Shown piece after piece: positions 390-39,676 of a stretch of DNA of 64,000 bases. The notes below the pieces were generated by a model that was given only the letters and a program-made list of their open reading frames with translations, was not told where the DNA came from and did not search any database. Both the position numbers and the translations under genes were made by a program. The DNA lies in NCBI GenBank assembly GCA_964586785.1, contig CAZPHS010000003.1, forward strand, positions 69,062 to 133,061. Direction: 5' to 3'. Source of the DNA: an uncultured Christensenellaceae bacterium (GTDB lineage: Bacteria; Bacillota; Clostridia; Christensenellales; SZUA-584). The stretch's first letter is position 1, and every line of letters begins with the position of its first letter.

Positions 390-1421
390 ATGAGGAAGCT
401 TTCAACACTCGAATGGGACGGACGGAGCCTTGAGCTGCTGGACCAAACGCGGCTGCCGGCCGATACGGTATATTTGAGCATTGATACCGCGAAAGGCGTA
501 TGGGAAGCGATAAACACGATGCAGGTGCGCGGGGCGCCCGCTATTGGCGTGACGGCCGCGTACGGTATGGTGCTCGCGGCGCGCGGCATTAAAGAAACGT
601 CTTTCAAACCGTTTTTGCGGCAGCTGAAAAAGCAGGGAAACATGCTGGCGTCCGCGCGTCCTACCGCGGTTAATCTCCCGTGGGCTGTGGGACGTATGCT
701 GGACGCGGCAAGGATTTACGGCAAGATGGAAGGCATACTCCAACGGCTTGAGACGGAAGCCGTTACTATACACAAAGAAGATATGTTTACAAACAGGCGC
801 ATAGGCGAATTCGCTCTTGGGTTCTTAAAGGACGGATACGGAGTGCTGACACACTGCAACGCCGGTATGCTTGCCACTACCAAATACGGTACGGGGCTGG
901 CGGCTTTTTATCTCGCGAAAGAACGCGGTATAAATATAAAAGTGTATGTTGACGAGACGCGTCCGCGGTTTCAGGGCGCGTCGCTTACGGCGTATGAGCT
1001 TTTGCATTCGGGAATAGACGTAACTTTGATATGCGACAGCACCGCGGCCGTGCTTATGGCGCAGGGAAAGATAAACGCGGTTTTAACCGGCTGCGACAGG
1101 GTGGCTGCCAACGGTGATATAGCGAACAAGATAGGCACATTCGGATTGTCTATCGCCGCCAAACATTTCGGCATACCGGTATATGTGGCGGCGCCTGTTT
1201 CGACTATAGACTTAGGCTGCGAAAGCGGCGCGCAGATACCCATAGAGGAACGCAGCGGAGACGAGATAACAATTATAGGCGACGTGCGCGTGGCGCCAGA
1301 GGGTGTAAAAACATACAATCCGGCTTTTGACATAACTCCGGCGGAGAATATAACGGCGATTATCACCGAACACGGAGCGGCGTTCCCGCCTTTTGAAGAA
1401 GGGCTCAAAGCGCTGTTTTAG
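390..1421 (+). CDS. mtnA: S-methyl-5-thioribose-1-phosphate isomerase (eIF-2B alpha/beta/delta-like family)
   Basis: Motifs LDQTRLP, RGAPAIG, THCNAG, DETRPRFQG, GCDRVAANGDIANKIGT. The ATG at 390 follows GAGGAG (377..382) by 7 nt; the ORF-track start at 336 has no SD. Confidence 0.85.
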   Translation: MRKLSTLEWDGRSLELLDQTRLPADTVYLSIDTAKGVWEAINTMQVRGAPAIGVTAAYGMVLAARGIKETSFKPFLRQLKKQGNMLASARPTAVNLPWAVGRMLDAARIYGKMEGILQRLETEAVTIHKEDMFTNRRIGEFALGFLKDGYGVLTHCNAGMLATTKYGTGLAAFYLAKERGINIKVYVDETRPRFQGASLTAYELLHSGIDVTLICDSTAAVLMAQGKINAVLTGCDRVAANGDIANKIGTFGLSIAAKHFGIPVYVAAPVSTIDLGCESGAQIPIEERSGDEITIIGDVRVAPEGVKTYNPAFDITPAENITAIITEHGAAFPPFEEGLKALF

Positions 1422-1431
1422 AAATAAAAAC

Positions 1432-1460
1432 GCCCGCGACATATACCGCGGGCTTTTTTA
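1432..1460 (+). terminator. Rho-independent terminator after mtnA
   Basis: GCCCGCG / CGCGGGC stem with an 8-nt loop, followed by a T-run. Confidence 0.8.
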
Positions 1461-1579
1461 TTTTCTCTTTGATTTTTTCGCGGCGGGTCGCCGGATTTAT
1501 TATTGTTTTGCAAGCGCATAGAACAGCCGCATAATTGGCTATCATATAATCAAAAGGTTAAAAAGGGGATTATTAAGTT

Positions 1580-3499
1580 ATGATGTACGAAAGATTTCTC
1601 TCTCCGGGAAAGATAGGACGGCTGACGCTTAAAAACCGCTGCATTTTCCCTCCCATGGGCTCGGGTTATGTCACGGAGGAGCATCCCCGCGATGTGCTTG
1701 CGGACTATCACGCGCGGCGCGCGCGGGGCGGCTGCGCCATGAATATAGTAGAGATTGCGTCGGTGCATATAACAAGCAGTGCGCCTAATATTATAGGCAT
1801 TTACGACGATAAATTTTTAACCGGATTAAGCGGGCTGGCAAAAGCCATAAAGGACAACGGAGGGATTGCGTGCATACAGCTTTGGCACGGCGGGCGGCAG
1901 ACGTCCGGAAAGCCGTTCGGCGGGAAACCCTTTGCTCCCTCGGCGATAACCTGCGCAATGATAGGCGAAGAACCTCACGCTATGACGGCGGACGAGGCTG
2001 CCGAAATAATATGCGCCTTTGGGGACGCCGCCAAAAGAGCGAAAGAAGCGGGCTTTGACGCCGTGGAAATACACGGCGCTCACGGCTATCTTATTGATTC
2101 CTTTTTAAACCCGTATACAAACAAGCGCGAGGATAAATACGGCGGCAGCCCCGAGAACAGGGCAAGGTTCGGATGCGAGGTTATAGCTGACGTAAGAAAA
2201 AAGACGGGGCACGATTACACAGTGCTTTTCAGGATGAGCGCCCGGGAAAATGTTGAAGGCGGCATAGAGCTTGACGACGCGATAGACGCCGCAAAGCGTT
2301 ACGAGGCTTCCGGCATAGACGCGCTTGACGTATCGCAAGGGTGCTATGACGCGATGACATACACCGTTCCGCCGTATTTCTATCCGCACATGATAAACGC
2401 CAAAAACGCGGGGGCCATAAAAAAAAGCACGGGCGTGCCTATGGTTGTTGCCGGAAGAATAACTTCGCCGGATATCGCGGAACACATACTGCAAAAGGGG
2501 TACGCGGATTTTATATCTCTCGGACGTCCCCAGCTTGCCGACCCCGATTTTGTCAGAAAAACGGCGGAAGGGCGCGCGGAGCAGATTGTGCGTTGCATAG
2601 CGTGCAACCAAGGTTGCGTAGGCCGTATGTTTGCGGGGCTCGGCGCAAGCTGCATATTTACGCCCGCGACGGGGAACGAGAAAAAAGCGGTTGTTTTGCC
2701 CGCGCAAAAAAAGAAGAAGGTTCTTGTTGTGGGGGGAGGTCCGGCCGGTTTGGAGGCGGCGCGGGTTGCAGCGGAGAGGGGGCATAAAGTGACGCTGTTT
2801 GAAAAAACGGTATCGCTGGGAGGACAGTTTCTGCAGGCCGGCAGAGCGCCGCACAAGCGCGAGTTTGGCGCGTCCGCGGAGCACATGGGATACCGCGCGC
2901 ATAAAGCCGGAGTTGATATAAAACTGTATACGAAGGCAACGCCCGAGAGGATAAGGCAAATAGAGCCGGATGTAATAATAATCGCGACCGGCAGCGAGCC
3001 AAGCTTTCCCGATATACCCGGAATACATAACGATAATGTGTACGAAGGCAGGCTTGTTGTTTCCGGATATACTTTTATAAGAGAGCAGAATGTGGCGGTA
3101 ATAGGCGGCGGGCTTATAGGGCTTGAGGCCATGGAAGTTTTGACGGCGCAGGGGAAAGCGGTAACCGTGGTGGAAATGCAAGACGAGATTGGTAAGGACC
3201 TTGAGATGTATATACGCCCGTATATGCTTGAGATTATAAAACGGTACGGCGTTAAAATATTAACCGGCGCGAAGTGCATAGCCATAGGCGACGGATATAT
3301 AAAAGCAAAGAAGAACGGCGGGGAGATTGACTTGGCGTGCGGCGCCGCGGTTATAGCCGTGGGCGCGAGGCCAAATGAGGACGTTAAAGATATGGCCGAG
3401 GCTTTGGGCATAGAGTATCATATTATAGGCGACGCGAAATGCCCCGACAAGGTGCTTCCCGCCATATGGGGCGGCAACGAGATTGCGCGAAGCCTGTAA
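1580..3499 (+). CDS. 2-enoate reductase / 2,4-dienoyl-CoA reductase family flavoenzyme (OYE-like FMN domain + [4Fe-4S] + FAD/NAD(P) domain)
   Basis: N-terminal OYE-type TIM barrel (HGAHGYLIDSFL), CIACNQGC cluster motif, then two dinucleotide folds (VVGGGPAGLEAA, VIGGGLIGLEA). Confidence 0.8.
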   Translation: MMYERFLSPGKIGRLTLKNRCIFPPMGSGYVTEEHPRDVLADYHARRARGGCAMNIVEIASVHITSSAPNIIGIYDDKFLTGLSGLAKAIKDNGGIACIQLWHGGRQTSGKPFGGKPFAPSAITCAMIGEEPHAMTADEAAEIICAFGDAAKRAKEAGFDAVEIHGAHGYLIDSFLNPYTNKREDKYGGSPENRARFGCEVIADVRKKTGHDYTVLFRMSARENVEGGIELDDAIDAAKRYEASGIDALDVSQGCYDAMTYTVPPYFYPHMINAKNAGAIKKSTGVPMVVAGRITSPDIAEHILQKGYADFISLGRPQLADPDFVRKTAEGRAEQIVRCIACNQGCVGRMFAGLGASCIFTPATGNEKKAVVLPAQKKKKVLVVGGGPAGLEAARVAAERGHKVTLFEKTVSLGGQFLQAGRAPHKREFGASAEHMGYRAHKAGVDIKLYTKATPERIRQIEPDVIIIATGSEPSFPDIPGIHNDNVYEGRLVVSGYTFIREQNVAVIGGGLIGLEAMEVLTAQGKAVTVVEMQDEIGKDLEMYIRPYMLEIIKRYGVKILTGAKCIAIGDGYIKAKKNGGEIDLACGAAVIAVGARPNEDVKDMAEALGIEYHIIGDAKCPDKVLPAIWGGNEIARSL

Positions 3500-33013: not shown

Positions 33014-33052
33014 AAAGAGGCGGCAGACTTAAACATCTGCCGCCTCTTTTTA
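33014..33052. terminator. Bidirectional terminator between the convergent methyltransferase and hydA genes
   Basis: Perfect 13-bp stem AAAGAGGCGGCAG / CTGCCGCCTCTTT. Confidence 0.85.
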
Positions 33053-35074
33053 TTTACGGCCGGGCTTTTTCGCGTAGTCGCTCATTACGTCCTTTAGTAT
33101 GTCAACGGTTTCCTGGGAATCGGTAAGCTCCTTCTTTAAGCGGTTTATTTCCGCTTCCAATGCCATCACCTTAACCGATTCGAGTTCGCCGCCTACTCTT
33201 TGCTCCGCGCGTTCAGCCGGATTTTTTTTTTGCGGCTCTTTTGCCCGCTTATCGCTTTCCGTCATAGAACTCACCTCGTCCAAAACATATTGCTCGTCAA
33301 GATATTGATTAAACTTTCCCCGTTTGACGTAACGCGTATGCAGATATTCGTGCGATATATGGCTGTTGGGATGTTCTAAAAAATCCTCATACAGTTTTTT
33401 AATAGACGGGTTCTCGTGCGATTTGCGGAAAGCTTTCTGCTCGTCTTCTTCATATATGCCCTTAAGCCTTTTATTCCGCACATCCGGGTCGGAAGACCTC
33501 GGCTGGCCGCCTCCCATAATACACCCGCCCGGGCATCCCATTACTTCGATGAAGTGGTATGGGGATTGTCCGGCCTTTATCTGCTCCATAAGCGCTTTCG
33601 CGCCGGCAAGCCCGCTTGTAACGGCCACTTTAACCGCAACGCCGTCAAGAAATTTATACTCCGGCAGAGGGTCGTCTATTACCAGCTCGGCGGTTTTAAT
33701 CTGCTCAAAGCCTATAATGGGGGAGACGTGCAGCCCTTCGAAGGGAATCTCGCGCCCCGTTACAATTTCATACACCGTGCGAAGCGCCGCTTCCATAACG
33801 CCTCCGGTAACGCCGAATATATCGGCGGCGCCGGTGGACATACCGAGGGGATTGTCAAATTCGCGGTCGGTCAAAGACGGAAAATCTATTCCCGCTTCCC
33901 GTATCATCTGCCCAAGCTCACGTGTGGTAAGCACGGCGTCAACATTGGGAACGCCGTTGTTGCGCATCTCTTTTCTTGAAACCTCGAACTTCTTGGCGGT
34001 GCAAGGCATAACTGACACCACATACATATCGTTGGGGTCTATGCCTATTTTTTCGGCGTAAAATGATTTGGCAAGCGCCCCGAGCATTGTATGGGGAGAT
34101 TTGCACGTTGACAAATTGGCAAGCTGTTCGGGGAAGGTATGCTCTATGTACTTAATCCAGCCGGGGCTGCACGATGTAATCATGGGCAAAACGGCCTCGC
34201 CGCCCGTCAGAGCTTTTTTAACTCTTGTTAAAAATTCGGTGCCTTCTTCTATAATGGTTAAATCGGCGGTAAAATCGGTGTCGAATATATCGTCGAAACC
34301 GAGAGTGGAAAGCGCCCGTGCTAATTTACCCGTTACGCGCGCTCCGGGCTGATATCCGAACTCTTCGCCTATAGCCACGCGGATTGCCGGGGCGACCTGC
34401 ACAACGGTTCGTTTGCTTTTGTCGCTTATGGCGTTCCACACCGGCTTTATGGCGTCGGTTTCCTTAAGAGCCCCCACGGGGCAAACAACCGTACACTGCC
34501 CGCAGAACACGCAGTTGACGGTTCCAAGCGAAAGGTCCATAGCGGGGCCTATAACCGTTTCAAAGCCCCTGTTCTGCGCGTTCAGCACGCCCGTTCCCTG
34601 AATTTCGTTACATACGGTAACGCAGCGCCTGCACAAAACGCATTTGGACATATTACGCGTTATGGCGACGGACGACTCGTTTATGCATTCGCTGTGCTCG
34701 CCCTCAAAGCGCGATTCCTGCACGCCGAGCGTTTTGCCAAGCTCCTGCAGTTCGCAGCTTTGGTTGCGCGTGCAGCTTAAGCAATCCTTATCGTGATCGG
34801 ATAAAAGCAGCTCGTAAAGCACCCGCCTGGCATTGCGCACCTTTTTGGTGTTGGTATCAACTACCATGCCCTCGGTTACCTTGGCCAGGCAGGAAGCCTG
34901 AAGCGTTTTAGCGCCTTGCACCTCAACAACGCATATCCTGCAGGAACCGAACTTATGTATGCCGCCGTAATGGCAAAGACCGGGTATGTTGATGCCGACG
35001 GACTTCGCCGCGTCCATTATTGTTGTATCTTTAGGGACTGTTACCGGCTGCCCGTTTATAGTTAAGCTGACCAT
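33050..35074 (-). CDS. hydA: [FeFe]-hydrogenase catalytic subunit, M3-type domain layout, with variant L1 motif and C-terminal coiled-coil extension
   Basis: N-terminal [2Fe-2S] domain, His-ligated cluster motif HDKDCLSCTRNQSC and 2x[4Fe-4S] (CVLCRRCVTVC, CVFCGQCTVVCP). H-cluster motifs are TSCSPGW (L1; canonical is TSCCPxW), MPCTAKKFE (L2) and EVMGCPGGCIMGGGQP (L3). Confidence 0.9.
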   Translation of the reverse strand: MVSLTINGQPVTVPKDTTIMDAAKSVGINIPGLCHYGGIHKFGSCRICVVEVQGAKTLQASCLAKVTEGMVVDTNTKKVRNARRVLYELLLSDHDKDCLSCTRNQSCELQELGKTLGVQESRFEGEHSECINESSVAITRNMSKCVLCRRCVTVCNEIQGTGVLNAQNRGFETVIGPAMDLSLGTVNCVFCGQCTVVCPVGALKETDAIKPVWNAISDKSKRTVVQVAPAIRVAIGEEFGYQPGARVTGKLARALSTLGFDDIFDTDFTADLTIIEEGTEFLTRVKKALTGGEAVLPMITSCSPGWIKYIEHTFPEQLANLSTCKSPHTMLGALAKSFYAEKIGIDPNDMYVVSVMPCTAKKFEVSRKEMRNNGVPNVDAVLTTRELGQMIREAGIDFPSLTDREFDNPLGMSTGAADIFGVTGGVMEAALRTVYEIVTGREIPFEGLHVSPIIGFEQIKTAELVIDDPLPEYKFLDGVAVKVAVTSGLAGAKALMEQIKAGQSPYHFIEVMGCPGGCIMGGGQPRSSDPDVRNKRLKGIYEEDEQKAFRKSHENPSIKKLYEDFLEHPNSHISHEYLHTRYVKRGKFNQYLDEQYVLDEVSSMTESDKRAKEPQKKNPAERAEQRVGGELESVKVMALEAEINRLKKELTDSQETVDILKDVMSDYAKKPGRK

Positions 35075-35077
35075 CGA

Positions 35078-38000
35078 TTACTGCCTCCTTTCACAATGCA
35101 GACAGCGCATGGCTTCCGCCATCGCATTCAGTTTGTGATATCCCTTTATTACTTCGTCAAAATTATTTTTTCTGGTTTCGGGGTCAAGCACTTCCTGTTC
35201 GAAACGGGCGTGCGCCACAACCTCGTCATTATCGGATATTTCGGGAATATCTATAAACTCGCCTTTGTTAAGCTTGCCTTTGCCGCCCAGATATTTGTCT
35301 ATGGAAACAGCGGCCTTTTTACCGTCCGCAATGGCGCGTATAACCTCGTCCGGCCCGCGTGTAACGTCTCCGCCCGCGAAAACGCCTTCCATTGTAGTCA
35401 TCTGTGTGTCGTCCTTTAATACAAATGTGCCCCAAGGAGTGATTCCTATCTCGTCTTTGCCTATAAACGGAAAGTCCGCGTGCTGGCTGACGGCGGGTAT
35501 AACCATATCCGCGTCCAGCACAAAGTTTGAATCCTCTATGAGAACGGAGCGTCTTCTGCCGGAAGCGTCAAAGTTGCCAAGCCTCATTTTTACGCACTCC
35601 ACCTTGCAAACCTTGCCGTCCTTACCGGCAATAAACCGTACCGGAGCGGCAAGTTCAATTATCTCTATGCCCTCCTCTACAGCCTCGCGAATCTCCGTTT
35701 CGTATGCGGGCATAGCGTCCGTCGTTCTTCTGTATAATACGGTAACTTTTTTCGCGCCGAGGCGCAGCGCTGTACGCGCCGAGTCTATAGCCGTGTTTCC
35801 GCCGCCTATAACCATTACATTGCAGCCTATCTGCATGGGAGCGTGCGTATTGGCTTTTTTCAGGAACCGTATGCCGTGTATAACGCCCGGAAGGTCTTCC
35901 CCGGGTATATTCACTTTTTGGGGAAGCTGCGTGCCTGTGGCGATGTATATGGAATCGTATTTTGATTTTATGTCTTTGAAGGATATATCTTTGCCTACTT
36001 CGGTATTAAGGTGTATTTTAACTCCCGCCTGCTCTACAAGCAAAACCTCATGCGCGAGAACGTCTTTGGGCAGCCTGTATTCGGGAATGCCGTAGCAAAG
36101 AACGCCTCCGGCGGTGTCGTGCTCCTCAAAAACATCGACGTCGTAGCCTATGCGCGCGAGATAATACGCGCAGGTTAAGCCGGAAGCTCCCGCTCCTAAA
36201 ACCGCGACGCTCTTGCCGTTTTTAGGGAATACTATATCGTGGGAATAAGCCTTTTCGTTTTGTATCGCGTAATCCGCAACGAACCGTTTCAAATCGCATA
36301 TCGCGACCGCCTCGTCAACTGTGCCCCTGCGGCATTTGCTCTCGCACGGTCTTGTGCATATGCGTCCGCAAACCGCGGGGAACGGGTTTTCCTGGCGGAC
36401 AAGATTATACGCGTCTATAAACCTGCCTGCCGCTATTAAAGACATATAGCCGGGCACGTTTACGTTCGCGGGGCAGGTGTTCTCGCACGGAGATATAAAA
36501 AGCTCCGAGCACACTCCGGCGCGGCAGTATTTGTTTCTTATGTGTTCGTCGTACTCGTCGCGAAAATATTTTATTGTGGACAGCACAGGATTGGGCGCCG
36601 TCTGTCCAAGCCCGCACATGGCGGTTTCTGAAAGCGTTTCGCCAAGCTCAATAAGCAGCTCAACGTCGCCTTCCTTGCCTTCGCCGCGCGTGATGCGCTC
36701 TAATATCTCAAGCATTCGCTTTGTGCCTATGCGGCACGCGGTGCATTTTCCGCATGACTCGTCGCGTATAAAATCCATAAAGAACCGCGCGGTATCGACC
36801 ATGCAGGTATCCTCGTTCATAACTATAAGCCCGCCGGAACCCATAATAGCGCCGAGTTCTTTTAACGGCTCGTAATCGGTTATTACGTTTAAATCCTTTG
36901 TTGTTACGCACCCGCCCGACGGTCCGCCTATCTGCGCCGATTTGAATTTCTTTTTACCGGGCGTTCCGCCGCCTATTTCGAAAATAATATCTCCGAGGGG
37001 AGTTCCTATAGGCACCTCCACAATGCCGGTGTTAACGACATTGCCGGCGAGCGCGAAAACTTTTGTTCCCTTGCTTTGCTCGGTGCCAAAGCCGGAGTAC
37101 CATTCGCCGCCCTTAAAAATTATAACCGGTATGTTCGCGAGCGTTTCGACATTATTAATAATAGTCGGCTTGCCAAAGAGCCCGCTTTGGAAGGGAAACG
37201 GCGGTTTTTGGCGCGGCTCGCCGCGATTGCCCTCTATGGAAGACATAAGCGAGGTTTCCTCGCCGCATACGAAAGCGCCCGCGCCTATGCGTATTTCTAT
37301 GTCAAAAGAAAAATCCGTACCGAATATGTTTTTGCCGAGAAGCCCCAAACCGCGCGCTTCCTCAAGCGCGGCCGTCATTCTTTCCACCGCTATGGGGTAT
37401 TCGGCGCGTATATATATATATCCCATATTTGCGCCTATGGCATAGCCGCCTATCATCATTCCCTCTATAACGGAATGCGGGTCGCCTTCTATTATGCTGC
37501 GGTCCATAAACGCGCCGGGGTCGCCTTCGTCGGCGTTGCATACAATGTATTTGGCGTCGCCGGACTGGTTAAGCGCCGCCTCCCATTTAACACCGGTGGG
37601 GAATCCCGCTCCGCCGCGCCCCTTAAGCCCCGACTTTTTAACAATATCCACTACGTCCTTGGGCGATAATCCCGACAAAGCGCTGTGAATAGCGAAATAG
37701 CCGTCGCTTGCTATATATGCCTCTATATCGCCGAATTCTATTGAGCCGCAATTGCGAAGAGCGATTTTCACCTGTCTTTTGAAAAAATCTATGTCGTCTA
37801 TTTTGGGAACGTGTTTGCGAAGGGAATGATCATAAAAAGTATATTCTTCTATCACCCGACCGCCGATAATATGCGTGTTTATTATCTCTTGCGCTTTTTT
37901 CTCATCAATTTCGGTGTAGAAAACTCTGTCGGGCAGCACAAGCACAACGGGGCCTACGGCGCAGGTTCCCATACAACCGGTTTGATATATCTTAACCTTG

Positions 38001-38176
38001 CCCGCAAGGCCTTTATTTTGTATTCCGTTTACAAAAGTATCGTAAACCTGGGCGCAGTTTGACGAGACGCAGCCCGCGCCGCTGCATATGTATATACGGT
38101 AATCGTATTTTTGCAGTGTTTTATTATACCGCTCTTTTATATCCCTAAGCTGTGATATAGTATTAATTGTTTTCAA
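35078..38176 (-). CDS. hydB: HydB/NuoF-like flavoprotein fused to a GltD/NfnB-like NAD(P)H-FAD oxidoreductase module
   Basis: Residues 1-550: Trx-like [2Fe-2S] (CSGAGC...CMGTC), GRGGAGFPTG FMN/NADH site and ESCGKCTACRIG cluster. Residues about 551-1032: GltD-type di-cluster region (CENTCP..., CGRICTRPCESKC), then VLGAGASGL and VIGGGNTAID dinucleotide folds. Confidence 0.9.
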   Translation of the reverse strand: MKTINTISQLRDIKERYNKTLQKYDYRIYICSGAGCVSSNCAQVYDTFVNGIQNKGLAGKVKIYQTGCMGTCAVGPVVLVLPDRVFYTEIDEKKAQEIINTHIIGGRVIEEYTFYDHSLRKHVPKIDDIDFFKRQVKIALRNCGSIEFGDIEAYIASDGYFAIHSALSGLSPKDVVDIVKKSGLKGRGGAGFPTGVKWEAALNQSGDAKYIVCNADEGDPGAFMDRSIIEGDPHSVIEGMMIGGYAIGANMGYIYIRAEYPIAVERMTAALEEARGLGLLGKNIFGTDFSFDIEIRIGAGAFVCGEETSLMSSIEGNRGEPRQKPPFPFQSGLFGKPTIINNVETLANIPVIIFKGGEWYSGFGTEQSKGTKVFALAGNVVNTGIVEVPIGTPLGDIIFEIGGGTPGKKKFKSAQIGGPSGGCVTTKDLNVITDYEPLKELGAIMGSGGLIVMNEDTCMVDTARFFMDFIRDESCGKCTACRIGTKRMLEILERITRGEGKEGDVELLIELGETLSETAMCGLGQTAPNPVLSTIKYFRDEYDEHIRNKYCRAGVCSELFISPCENTCPANVNVPGYMSLIAAGRFIDAYNLVRQENPFPAVCGRICTRPCESKCRRGTVDEAVAICDLKRFVADYAIQNEKAYSHDIVFPKNGKSVAVLGAGASGLTCAYYLARIGYDVDVFEEHDTAGGVLCYGIPEYRLPKDVLAHEVLLVEQAGVKIHLNTEVGKDISFKDIKSKYDSIYIATGTQLPQKVNIPGEDLPGVIHGIRFLKKANTHAPMQIGCNVMVIGGGNTAIDSARTALRLGAKKVTVLYRRTTDAMPAYETEIREAVEEGIEIIELAAPVRFIAGKDGKVCKVECVKMRLGNFDASGRRRSVLIEDSNFVLDADMVIPAVSQHADFPFIGKDEIGITPWGTFVLKDDTQMTTMEGVFAGGDVTRGPDEVIRAIADGKKAAVSIDKYLGGKGKLNKGEFIDIPEISDNDEVVAHARFEQEVLDPETRKNNFDEVIKGYHKLNAMAEAMRCLHCERRQ

Positions 38177-38698: not shown

Positions 38699-38998
38699 CC
38701 CGCACCTCCAAGCTGATTTGAGTAATTATTGATTTTTTTAAATTGTATATAGCGTACCGTAATATTAATGTATCAAAAGAATGTGATAGAAAAATGATTG
38801 AATTTCACAATTAACGGCTTAATTATAGTGCCGTCGCTTTATATTTAGTATTAAAATATAAAAATACTTCACAATTCCATAACAAATATAAATTATTTCC
38901 CTTTAAATATCATTTTCTATTGATGTTTCGCTTGTCAATTCCGAAGCGTTGTTATATCATTATTACACTAAACGGAAGAGAAAGCAGGGGATCCGCAA

Positions 38999-39676
38999 AT
39001 GAAGCAGATACGCCTGTTGATTGTGGAGCCGGGAGCCGAAATAAGAGCCGCCATAAAAAATCACGCGGCGCTTGAGAATTTTGCCGCGGACGAGGCGGCG
39101 GACGGCATAACCGCGTTAAAACTCTTCAGGCGAAACGATTATCACATTATTATTATGGAAGCGAATTTGGAAGAGCTTGACGCGTGGCATGTCTGCCAGC
39201 AGATTCGCAAAAGTTCGCGCGCCCCTATTATTATGCTGTCAAAACAAAGCAGCGAAGAAGAAAAGCTGCTTTTCTATGAGATTGGGGCGGATGATTTTAT
39301 TGAAAAACCGTTTTCATATAAAGAACTTATAGCGCGTATAAACGTTTTGCTGCGCCACAGTAAGCTTCACGAAGATTATACGCCAAGAAGGCTTATTTTT
39401 GACGGGCTTTGCATAGACATAGCGTCCCGAATAGTGTTTGTTGACGGCGAGAGCGTTATGCTTACCCCTAAAGAATACAAGCTGCTCTTGTTCCTCGCGA
39501 AAAATCCCAACCGCGCCATGACGCGCGAGACTATATTAAGCGAGGTGTGGGGGGACGATTTTTTCGGCACCGACAGAACCGTGGACACTCATATAAAAAC
39601 GCTGCGGGAAAACATAAAGCCGTATCATAACTATATAGGCACCGTATGGGGCTACGGGTACATGTTCAAGACTTAA
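38999..39676 (+). CDS. OmpR/PhoB-family response regulator with non-canonical receiver (Glu at the phospho-acceptor position), orphan
   Basis: Winged-helix C-terminus (TPKEYKLLLFLAKNP...TVDTHIKTLRENI...GYGY). The receiver has LLIVEPG instead of the DD/DE pocket and IIIMEANL instead of the phospho-Asp (E54, 39158..39160). The S and K positions are conserved (IIMLS, EKPF). Confidence 0.85.
   Translation: MKQIRLLIVEPGAEIRAAIKNHAALENFAADEAADGITALKLFRRNDYHIIIMEANLEELDAWHVCQQIRKSSRAPIIMLSKQSSEEEKLLFYEIGADDFIEKPFSYKELIARINVLLRHSKLHEDYTPRRLIFDGLCIDIASRIVFVDGESVMLTPKEYKLLLFLAKNPNRAMTRETILSEVWGDDFFGTDRTVDTHIKTLRENIKPYHNYIGTVWGYGYMFKT

Follow-up and report, generated by a model that had tools for sequence, protein, structure and literature searches.

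An [FeFe]-hydrogenase operon from an uncultured Christensenellaceae bacterium encoding a HydB subunit fused to a circularly permuted NfnB-like module

In this work we analysed a stretch of DNA of 64,000 nucleotides (nt) from an uncultured Christensenellaceae bacterium, hereafter called the window, to whose positions all coordinates refer, and we focused on an operon that encodes a three-subunit [FeFe]-hydrogenase. The flavoprotein subunit of this enzyme, named HydB* here, is confirmed to be a hydrogenase flavoprotein fused to an NfnB/GltD-like module for flavin adenine dinucleotide (FAD) and NADPH. The module occupies the position at which canonical HydB carries two ferredoxin-type clusters, as an earlier note on this DNA, made from the sequence without database searches, had claimed. 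The fused operon is a widespread and conserved variant of HydABC, already noticed in print but not studied there, and the fused enzyme probably links H2 to both NADH and NADPH.

How an electron pair is split with a single flavin mononucleotide (FMN) and iron-sulfur clusters close by, and where the low-potential electrons leave the enzyme, is still debated for the HydABC and Bfu enzymes (Schut 2022; PMC12018979, PMC10482914, PMC8880783). The fused operon provides a natural test of this exit, as the domain proposed to reduce ferredoxin has been swapped for a well-understood NADPH-FAD module, with the rest of the core invariant. The purified enzyme would show whether the C-terminal arm of the B subunit is the low-potential exit and whether bifurcation can be wired to NADP+.

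Architecture and authenticity of the HydB* fusion

The earlier note had placed the NfnB/GltD-like part at 35081-36526, which corresponds to residues 551-1032 of a single uninterrupted open reading frame (ORF) of 1032 codons on the minus strand. All the motifs quoted in it are present in HydB*, namely CENTCP (residues 564-569), CGRICTRPCESKC (603-615), VLGAGASGL (core at 661-667) and VIGGGNTAID (core at 791-798), and the domain search that it had proposed, run with Pfam, NCBIfam and the sequences of the PDB, identified the C-terminal half as NfnB/GltD-like. The Pfam domains of HydB* are 2Fe-2S_thioredx (25-100), Complex1_51K (179-350, E 7e-48), SLBB (374-422), NADH_4Fe-4S (461-545, E 9e-34), Fer4_20 (553-641, E 2e-23) and Pyr_redox_2 (656-952, E 6e-29); no Pfam Fer4 dicluster domain was found anywhere in the protein. 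Among the NCBIfam models, those for NuoF matched residues 150-546 and those of the GltD/NfnB type residues 516-1029. Two NfnB/GltD models scored under their cut-offs (TIGR01316, 373 bits for a cut-off of 471.75; NF009410, 505.3 bits, just below the cut-off of 516). The NfnB/GltD small subunits are characterised by a Fer4_20 di-cluster domain and, after it, Rossmann folds for FAD and NAD(P)H; this domain set is present in HydB*, with its segments in permuted order.

The point at which the two parts meet is sharply defined. The genome's own canonical HydB (596 amino acids, aa) is 56% identical over HydB* residues 24-560 and then continues with a Fer4 dicluster at its residues 542-593. HydB* residues 27-560 also aligned with the solved HydB-type chains 7q4v_B (E 3e-211), 7t2r_B (9e-206), 8oh5_B (1.5e-193), 8a6t_B (1.5e-191) and 7p5h_B (8e-177), and all five alignments stop at EHIRNKYCRAGVCSELF, the conserved H..C-x4-C hinge motif (CRAGVC). 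The NfnB-like module (476 aa) begins eight residues past the last hinge cysteine. Because the next cysteine pair, C564/C568, is already part of this module, the ferredoxin-like domain has been replaced, and not just extended. The His and Cys of the hinge motif are ligands of the B2 site in a NiFe-Bfu enzyme (Feng 2022, PMC8880783), and H545, C551, C556 and C458 of HydB* fit the 4Cys+His pattern of that study; whether this site holds an iron-sulfur cluster or zinc is disputed between papers (PMC12018979, PMC8880783). Judged by its domains and predicted ligands, the ensemble of HydB* residues 1-556 and HydC is a bifurcating-type core, with FMN, the B1 [4Fe-4S] cluster, the N-terminal [2Fe-2S] cluster, the hinge metal site and the [2Fe-2S] cluster of HydC.

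Residues 553-1032 gave their strongest PDB sequence matches with 9bov_A (E 4e-123, chain residues 103-566), 9n5u_A (3e-119) and 4ylf_B (2e-106), followed by 8oh5_C (2e-100), 5jca_L (2e-92) and the bacterial GltD 2vdc_G (5e-78), and the identity between the module and the NfnB of the same genome is 41%. The two remaining cysteines of the di-cluster region are provided by the C-terminal RCLHC (1024-1028), which the earlier note had missed. The final 35 residues of HydB*, ending RCLHC, align to residues 11-43 of 4ylf_B and, in the NfnB of the same genome, to residues 26-59 (E 3e-6). Likewise, positions 1-31 of Fer4_20 match the tail of HydB* and positions 20-112 the start of the module. Because the tail aligns to the N-terminus of NfnB and Fer4_20 is split in this way, the module is a circular permutation of ordinary NfnB. 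The permutation is common to the inserts of NfnA and StnC, where the alignments extend through the trailing RCL.C (9bov_A, 8oh5_C); the 1172 aa of 8oh5_C match the length of StnC given in PMC10482914.

Related arrangements were seen in other proteins. On the contig that contains the window, and upstream of it, a protein of 877 aa (G000:C3:25660-28899, ORF 430-3063) combines a dihydroorotate-dehydrogenase-like domain (residues 9-317) with a GltD-like module that is permuted alike, with Fer4_20 positions 30-112 at the module start and 1-42 near the C-terminus. Proteins of about 650 aa (P0196, P0205, P0220, P0225, P0261 and P0270) consist of the last part of NuoF and an NfnB-like module, with no FMN domain; their NuoF share is the [4Fe-4S] helical domain and amounts to about 27-29% of the NuoF query part. 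The match of NF009410 to HydB* from residue 516 is consistent with this family of proteins, which might represent a relic of the fusion or else its source.

The fusion is a true one, as contigs from four other runs, belonging to four studies, span the junction (~36509) with substitutions only and no indels listed (X2 record 1, 33050-37529; X3 record 14, 35357-37184; X4 record 22, 36154-36954; X5 record 29, 36388-36820). A depth spike and 'joints' near 37500-37540 coincide with the most conserved stretch of NuoF and were read as contigs of other organisms. In view of the gapless junction in the four other runs and of a full-length fusion in 74 of 80 related loci, an assembly or frameshift artefact was rejected.

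Distribution, conservation and relation to known enzymes

A query of 201 aa covering the junction matched at least 599 stretches in species genomes, at least 520 of which were confirmed, and relatives of the fusion are found in at least 520 species genomes. The best 80 of the at least 599 junction matches, which all cover query residues 1-201 or 2-201, are taken here as the related loci, and 75 sequences entered the conservation alignment. By record title these 80 belong mostly to Christensenellales/Christensenellaceae, Oscillospiraceae, Acetivibrionales, Saccharofermentanales, Mobilitalea, Lachnoclostridium and metagenome-assembled genomes of unclassified Clostridia. The fusion gave a single full-length tblastn match in 74 of the 80 loci, with hydC upstream in 74/74 and hydA downstream in 75/75 of those with room for the gene. 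All 22 predicted cluster and hinge cysteines, including the eight of the module, are invariant in 75/75 sequences, and so is the YRR that follows the second Rossmann strand; the FAD and GGGNTAID fingerprints are conserved. Among protein clusters, the 120 best (query residues 400-760) showed 78-100% identity, with 1012-1051 aa in 114 and 754-954 aa in the six shorter ones. Divergent forms were found as well, with 12 full-length fusions of NuoF and NfnB among the best 150 representatives (50% clustering), the NuoF part of which falls to 27-37% identity.

Within a sample of the order comprising 121 genomes at least 90% complete, from 82 genera, the junction is carried by 17 genomes of 11 genera, including all four sampled genomes of the bacterium's own family. 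In one genome (G040:C2:128966-129574) a junction match with 57% identity (query 2-201) lies in a frame of 428 aa, which adjoins a hydA frame of 579 aa and may be a shortened or broken fusion. With regard to a single origin of all NuoF-NfnB fusions, a quick tree of 99 NuoF cores requires six label changes, only one of which is forced by starred branches, and several fused rows lie on very long branches. In this tree the window lineage together with P0124 (support 97) adjoins canonical HydBs including the genome's own paralogue (weak support, 80).

With at least 520 species genomes the architecture is not rare, nor is it unnoticed, since a genome paper of 2018 (PMC6163223) recorded the same architecture for Vallitalea guaymasensis. 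Cultured organisms that are candidate carriers are V. guaymasensis L81, Mobilitalea sibirica and Oscillospiraceae bacterium WX1. A literature search, which fell short of most subscription journals and of supplementary files, turned up neither biochemical nor structural work on a HydB-GltD/NfnB fusion, in agreement with the earlier note, which knew of no biochemical characterisation. The main text of Schut 2022 places an Nfn-like domain on BfuA only and does not contain 'GltD' or 'fused', and GltD goes unmentioned in Losey 2020. The architecture may well be included, however, in the supplementary material (tables and figures) of both papers, where BfuB clades and types of beta subunit are listed. 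The HydDB rule 'GltD but not NuoF' (PMC5037454) implies that its authors met proteins with both domains.

The residues that distinguish bifurcating from non-bifurcating beta subunits were described by Losey 2020 (PMC7311640): in bifurcating subunits the NADH loop has A/E and M, an F lies near FMN and the motif GGPSG is present, whereas non-bifurcating ones have T/S, K/S/A and Y at those sites and are without GGPSG. HydB* is of the bifurcating pattern in all three respects (A222, M224, F302 and GGPSG at 417-421), and a beta subunit of the non-bifurcating type was rejected on these grounds. The stretches GDPGAFMDR, GAGAFVCGEE and GGPSGG are exact in 75/75 sequences. HydB* resembles the non-bifurcating multimeric enzymes in being a NuoF-type beta subunit short of the full cluster set of bifurcating HydB (PMC7311640), and differs from them in being bifurcating at all three diagnostic sites and in having a second flavin module.

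In comparison with HydABC, the operon encodes three subunits in the same roles, and the N-terminal [2Fe-2S] cluster, the FMN site, B1 and the hinge motif are common to both. It differs in that the C-terminal 2x[4Fe-4S] domain of HydABC, of about 57 residues and the proposed ferredoxin site, is gone and the FAD/NADPH module of 476 residues stands instead, and in that HydA has an extra C-terminal extension. The solved HydABC chains 7q4v_B/7q4w_B/8a5e, 8a6t_B and 7p5h_B come from the enzymes of Acetobacterium woodii, Thermoanaerobacter kivui and Thermotoga maritima. With respect to the Bfu family (Schut 2022), the FMN/NAD(H) domain and B1 of BfuB and the C1 cluster of BfuC are represented by Complex1_51K, NADH_4Fe-4S and 2Fe-2S_thioredx, whereas the six-cluster BfuBC core with its C-terminal ferredoxin-like domain is not, two clusters of another fold being found instead.

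The closest relatives of the module itself lie in the enzymes of the NfnABC/StnABC type. The structure 8oh5 is StnABC of Sporomusa ovata (PMC10482914), and we matched 9bov to NfnABC of Caldicellulosiruptor (PMC11829005) and 9n5u to Thermococcus sibiricus (PMC12018979). These enzymes share with the window operon the same permuted NfnB-like module, a HydBC-like core, and NADPH, NAD and FMN/FAD in one complex. In them, however, the module lies inside the A subunit, after the [2Fe-2S] domain, where it replaces the mid-potential branch's catalytic site, and a ferredoxin-like domain is still present in the B subunit. In the window operon the H-cluster domain of the A subunit is complete, and it is the B subunit that bears the module, at the low-potential exit. 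Membership of the Stn/Nfn-Bfu enzymes was rejected because of this placement and because the A subunit has full Fe_hyd_lg_C and small-subunit domains. The enzymes NfnAB/NfnSL (4ylf_B, 5jca_L) have in common with the module the fold and cofactors of their large subunit, i.e. two [4Fe-4S] clusters, FAD and NADPH, while the module differs from them in its permuted first cluster segment, in its covalent link to a NuoF-type flavoprotein and in having no NfnA partner. The operon was not assigned to the NfnAB transhydrogenases, since no NfnA-like gene lies in or beside it and the genome's own NfnA, with a separate NfnB, is on another contig.

The catalytic subunit belongs to the multimeric [FeFe]-hydrogenases of group A, as NF040763 scores above its cut-off and HydB*, with its NuoF domain, is encoded 3 nt upstream. 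HydDB assigns to group A2 those enzymes that have a neighbouring protein with a GltD-type domain and without a NuoF domain (PMC5037454). As in that group, an [FeFe]-hydrogenase is genetically tied here to a GltD-type NAD(P)H-FAD protein, and the function is likewise predicted only; the difference is that NuoF and GltD domains lie in one protein and that HydC is present, so that membership of group A2 was rejected. Because of this combination the HydDB rule, applied by hand, would file the fused enzyme under A3, as an ordinary bifurcating hydrogenase. Since a canonical HydABC, accompanied by a sensory HydS-like gene, is encoded in the same genome along with a canonical NfnAB, the fused enzyme is an addition to these systems and not a substitute, and a separate role for it beside them is plausible.

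Proposed function and alternatives

According to the structural papers (PMC12018979, PMC10482914, PMC8880783), the low-potential path of the solved enzymes leads from FMN over the HydC cluster and B3/B4 to ferredoxin. Xiao 2025 (PMC12018979) describes it as running from C1 to B3/B4 and ferredoxin, with ferredoxin docked between NfnC, at its C-terminal domain, and NfnB, at its ferredoxin-like domain, and Kumar 2023 (PMC10482914) regards B3/B4 as the putative ferredoxin site. As the domain replaced in HydB* is the low-potential ferredoxin exit of solved Bfu enzymes, the clusters of the module would stand in for B3/B4. We tentatively favour, at somewhat below even confidence, the reading that NADP(H) takes the place of ferredoxin on the low-potential branch, so that H2 would be coupled to NAD(H) and NADP(H) together. 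The module clusters would receive low-potential electrons from either the mobile cluster of HydC or the hinge site and would hand them to the FAD, which would gather two and reduce NADP+. The net reaction would be 2 H2 + NAD+ + NADP+ = NADH + NADPH + 2 H+ and reversible, and in a fermenter it would run towards H2, from NADH and the more reducing NADPH at low H2 pressure, with no need for ferredoxin. The FAD of the module would act as a plain converter between two-electron and one-electron transfer, as in StnC, and not as a second bifurcating site. The earlier note had considered bifurcation at this FAD; it now appears less likely, as the closest relatives of the module are the inserts of NfnABC and StnC, and the FAD of StnC binds NADPH and has been shown by experiment to be non-bifurcating (PMC10482914).

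Several points weigh against coupling to NADP(H) in ferredoxin's place. The substrate set of the fused enzyme is purely inferred, and the preference for NADPH is predicted from a YRR motif common to NADPH-binding relatives. Ferredoxin could dock on the module clusters as it does on NfnB, and the residues of the bifurcating type may have been inherited without being in use. Assembly of the H-cluster by the known route cannot be assumed either, as HydE, HydG and a HydF above cut-off were not found in the genome. Potentials in cells are about -280 mV for NADH and about -370 mV for NADPH (general knowledge and Schuchmann and Mueller 2018), values that come from elsewhere than this organism. As NADPH is thus only about 90 mV more reducing than NADH, the energetic gain would be small compared with ferredoxin.

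If ferredoxin did bind, at the distal cluster of the module, the enzyme would link H2, NAD(H), NADP(H) and ferredoxin as a hydrogenase combined with an Nfn-type transhydrogenase, and the module FAD might bifurcate. The two [4Fe-4S] clusters of NfnB are indeed the ferredoxin route in NfnAB (PMC10482914), and the identity of the module to the genome's own NfnB and its match to 4ylf_B speak for such a four-substrate enzyme. The arginine that contacts the flavin N5 in bifurcating NfnB is also present, as R701, and invariant in 75/75 sequences; as a marker of a bifurcating FAD it is uninformative, however, because the non-bifurcating StnC has the same arginine (PMC10482914). The operon offers no NfnA-like partner as a second exit from the FAD, the nearest relatives of the module and its permutation favour the linear StnC/NfnA type, and the genome already has separate NfnAB and canonical HydABC; we consider the four-substrate enzyme unlikely. 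A rather improbable alternative, to which we give slightly less weight, is a non-bifurcating NAD(P)H-dependent hydrogenase, in which NADH at the FMN or NADPH at the FAD would feed the H-cluster independently and the module would widen the range of donors. With the B3/B4 domain the known ferredoxin site has been lost, there are multimeric [FeFe]-hydrogenases that do not bifurcate (Losey 2020, PMC7311640), and HydDB proposes a simple NADPH-linked role for the GltD-linked enzymes of group A2 (PMC5037454). Such an enzyme is hard to reconcile with the three diagnostic features of Losey 2020, which are of the bifurcating type and invariant in 75/75 sequences, and with the retention of the N-terminal [2Fe-2S] cluster, the hinge site and HydC.

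The complex might also not be an active hydrogenase in this bacterium: no H-cluster would be built, and it would serve as an NADH:NADP+ transhydrogenase or in another redox role. The maturases are what argues for this. In the genome, which is 96.5% complete with 0.06% contamination, HydG and HydE had no match at E 1e-3 and HydF had generic GTPase matches only (88.6 bits for a cut-off of 325); a tblastn search of it with HydE, HydG and HydF of a relative from the same family found none for HydE and HydG and only GTPase-domain matches for HydF. Throughout the family (40 genomes, this one included) Fe_hyd_lg_C genes occur in 40/40, several hydA genes being retained in each, and HydG, HydE and HydF in only three, the same three genomes, with the genes adjacent or on small contigs; the other 37 are likewise without the maturases. 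The order sample has a strong hydA (E 1e-80 or better) in 109 genomes and HydG above cut-off in 25, of which 23 have hydA; 86 of the 109 hydA-positive genomes are without HydG above cut-off, and 83 have no match at all at E 1e-40. Where genomes are incomplete, absence does not amount to proof, but one single-contig family genome rated 99% complete and two of two contigs are also without maturases, and since closed genomes show the same absence a chance loss is unlikely. Against an inactive hydrogenase, the three H-cluster motif regions of HydA are intact, hydA lies beside the fusion in 75/75 loci, HydG is found in 5 of the 17 fusion carriers of the order sample, and maturase-less archaea and protists make active [FeFe]-hydrogenases (PMC11216029). 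We therefore hold this last alternative to be very improbable. The presence of hydA without maturases has been published for archaea and some protists (PMC11216029); a literature search on maturase-less hydA in this bacterial order found nothing.

Should NADP(H) indeed replace ferredoxin, the fused enzyme would be the first Bfu-type enzyme with a pyridine nucleotide as its low-potential partner. Such a ferredoxin-independent hydrogenase would produce H2 from NADH and NADPH jointly, or share out the electrons of H2 between NAD+ and NADP+. It would also be a natural domain swap by which the low-potential exit of the bifurcating core is located in the B subunit's C-terminal arm, and most carriers of the order would mature it in the absence of HydE, HydF and HydG; this wider claim is possible but doubtful. 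If true, it would open a route from NADPH to H2 in many Clostridia of digesters, landfills and the gut, one overlooked by current metabolic models and by classification of the HydDB type.

Operon layout and further features

The features of the operon are listed in Table 1. The genes hydC, hydB* and hydA form, in this order, a tight head-to-tail operon on the minus strand, as seen from the ORF calls and translations, and the earlier note's view of a three-gene hydrogenase is borne out by the hydC and the complete hydA, with its three H-cluster motif regions, that flank hydB*. The start codon of hydB* is a TTG, 8 nt downstream of a GGAGG and 12 nt downstream of the hydC stop; the ATG of hydA lies 3 nt past the hydB* stop, with an AGGAGG ribosome-binding site within the final codons of hydB*.

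Table 1. Features of the fused hydrogenase operon and of the canonical hydrogenase cluster of the same genome
Feature	Position	Strand	Basis
Promoter-like site TTGACA, 18-nt spacer, AATGAT, in the 300-base-pair gap upstream of hydC	38909..38938	-	Consensus scan, 10/12 matches; pattern match only
hydC, NuoE/HydC-type thioredoxin-like [2Fe-2S] subunit, 169 aa	38189..38698	-	Pfam 2Fe-2S_thioredx, E 5e-51
hydB*, 1032-aa fusion of HydB/NuoF core and NfnB-like module	35078..38176	-	ORF, translation, Pfam/NCBIfam domains
HydB* residues 25-100, N-terminal thioredoxin-like [2Fe-2S] domain (B5 in Bfu nomenclature)	37877..38104	-	Pfam; ligands C31, C36, C68, C72
HydB* residues 179-556, FMN/NAD(H) domain, SLBB, [4Fe-4S] helical domain, hinge metal site	36509..37642	-	Pfam and PDB alignments
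HydB* residues 557-1032, NfnB/GltD-like module	35081..36508	-	PDB sequence matches; invariant cysteines and motifs
HydB* residues 997-1032, permuted segment (equivalent to the helix and CxxC pair at the N-terminus of ordinary NfnB)	35081..35188	-	Alignments to 4ylf_B and own NfnB
hydA, [FeFe]-hydrogenase catalytic subunit, 674 aa	33050..35074	-	NCBIfam NF040763, 867.9 bits (cut-off 765); Pfam Fe_hyd_lg_C, E 5e-93
HydA residues 586-674, charged cysteine-free C-terminal extension	33053..33319	-	Alignment with 580-aa canonical paralogue stops at residue 590
GC-rich hairpin of 14 base pairs between convergent hydA and rlmL-like gene	33014..33049	.	Terminator scan, 14 pairs, 8 G-C; pattern match only
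Canonical hydrogenase cluster: HydS-like (433 aa), two ORFs without Pfam match, hydC (158 aa), HATPase_c protein (182 aa), 127-aa ORF, hydB (596 aa), hydA (580 aa)	G000:C13:26000-38500		

The cysteines of HydC are at positions 94, 99, 135 and 139, and its top NCBIfam matches are HoxE/NuoE models. In HydB*, the cysteines of the [4Fe-4S] helical domain are C475, C478, C481 and C521, and the residues of the hinge metal site are C458, T496, H545, C551 and C556, according to the ligand pattern of Feng 2022. The two [4Fe-4S] sites of the module comprise C564, C568, C603, C607, C611, C615, C1025 and C1028, its FAD Rossmann fold is marked by GAGASGL (661-667) and its NADPH Rossmann fold by GGGNTAID (791-798) followed by YRR (815-817). 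The H-cluster motif regions of HydA are TSCSPGW (300-306), MPCTAKK (356-362) and MGCPGGC (512-518), and the TSCSPGW form of the first motif is also found in 7q4v_A, a solved and catalytically studied chain.

The C-terminal extension of HydA, of about 89 residues, is rich in lysine and glutamate, matches no Pfam family and is absent from the canonical paralogue. In 62 of the 68 related loci with room, the tblastn match extends at least as far as residue 660. In the order sample, hydA frames of 610-692 aa adjoin all 16 long fused hydB genes, and most other listed hydA frames are of about 566-600 aa. The extension may contact the added NfnB-like module.

The neighbouring genes were dropped as functional clues, as they encode unrelated products (methyltransferases, a TPR protein, HD-domain proteins, an OmpR-type response regulator, a P-II-like protein and DUF1538). 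The response regulator gene (38999-39676, plus strand) is divergent from hydC across the gap that holds the promoter-like site. A consensus promoter scan of the region returned 14 sites, for 8.5 expected from shuffles. At the other end of the operon, the hairpin that follows hydA is probably, to judge from its sequence and position, a bidirectional terminator.

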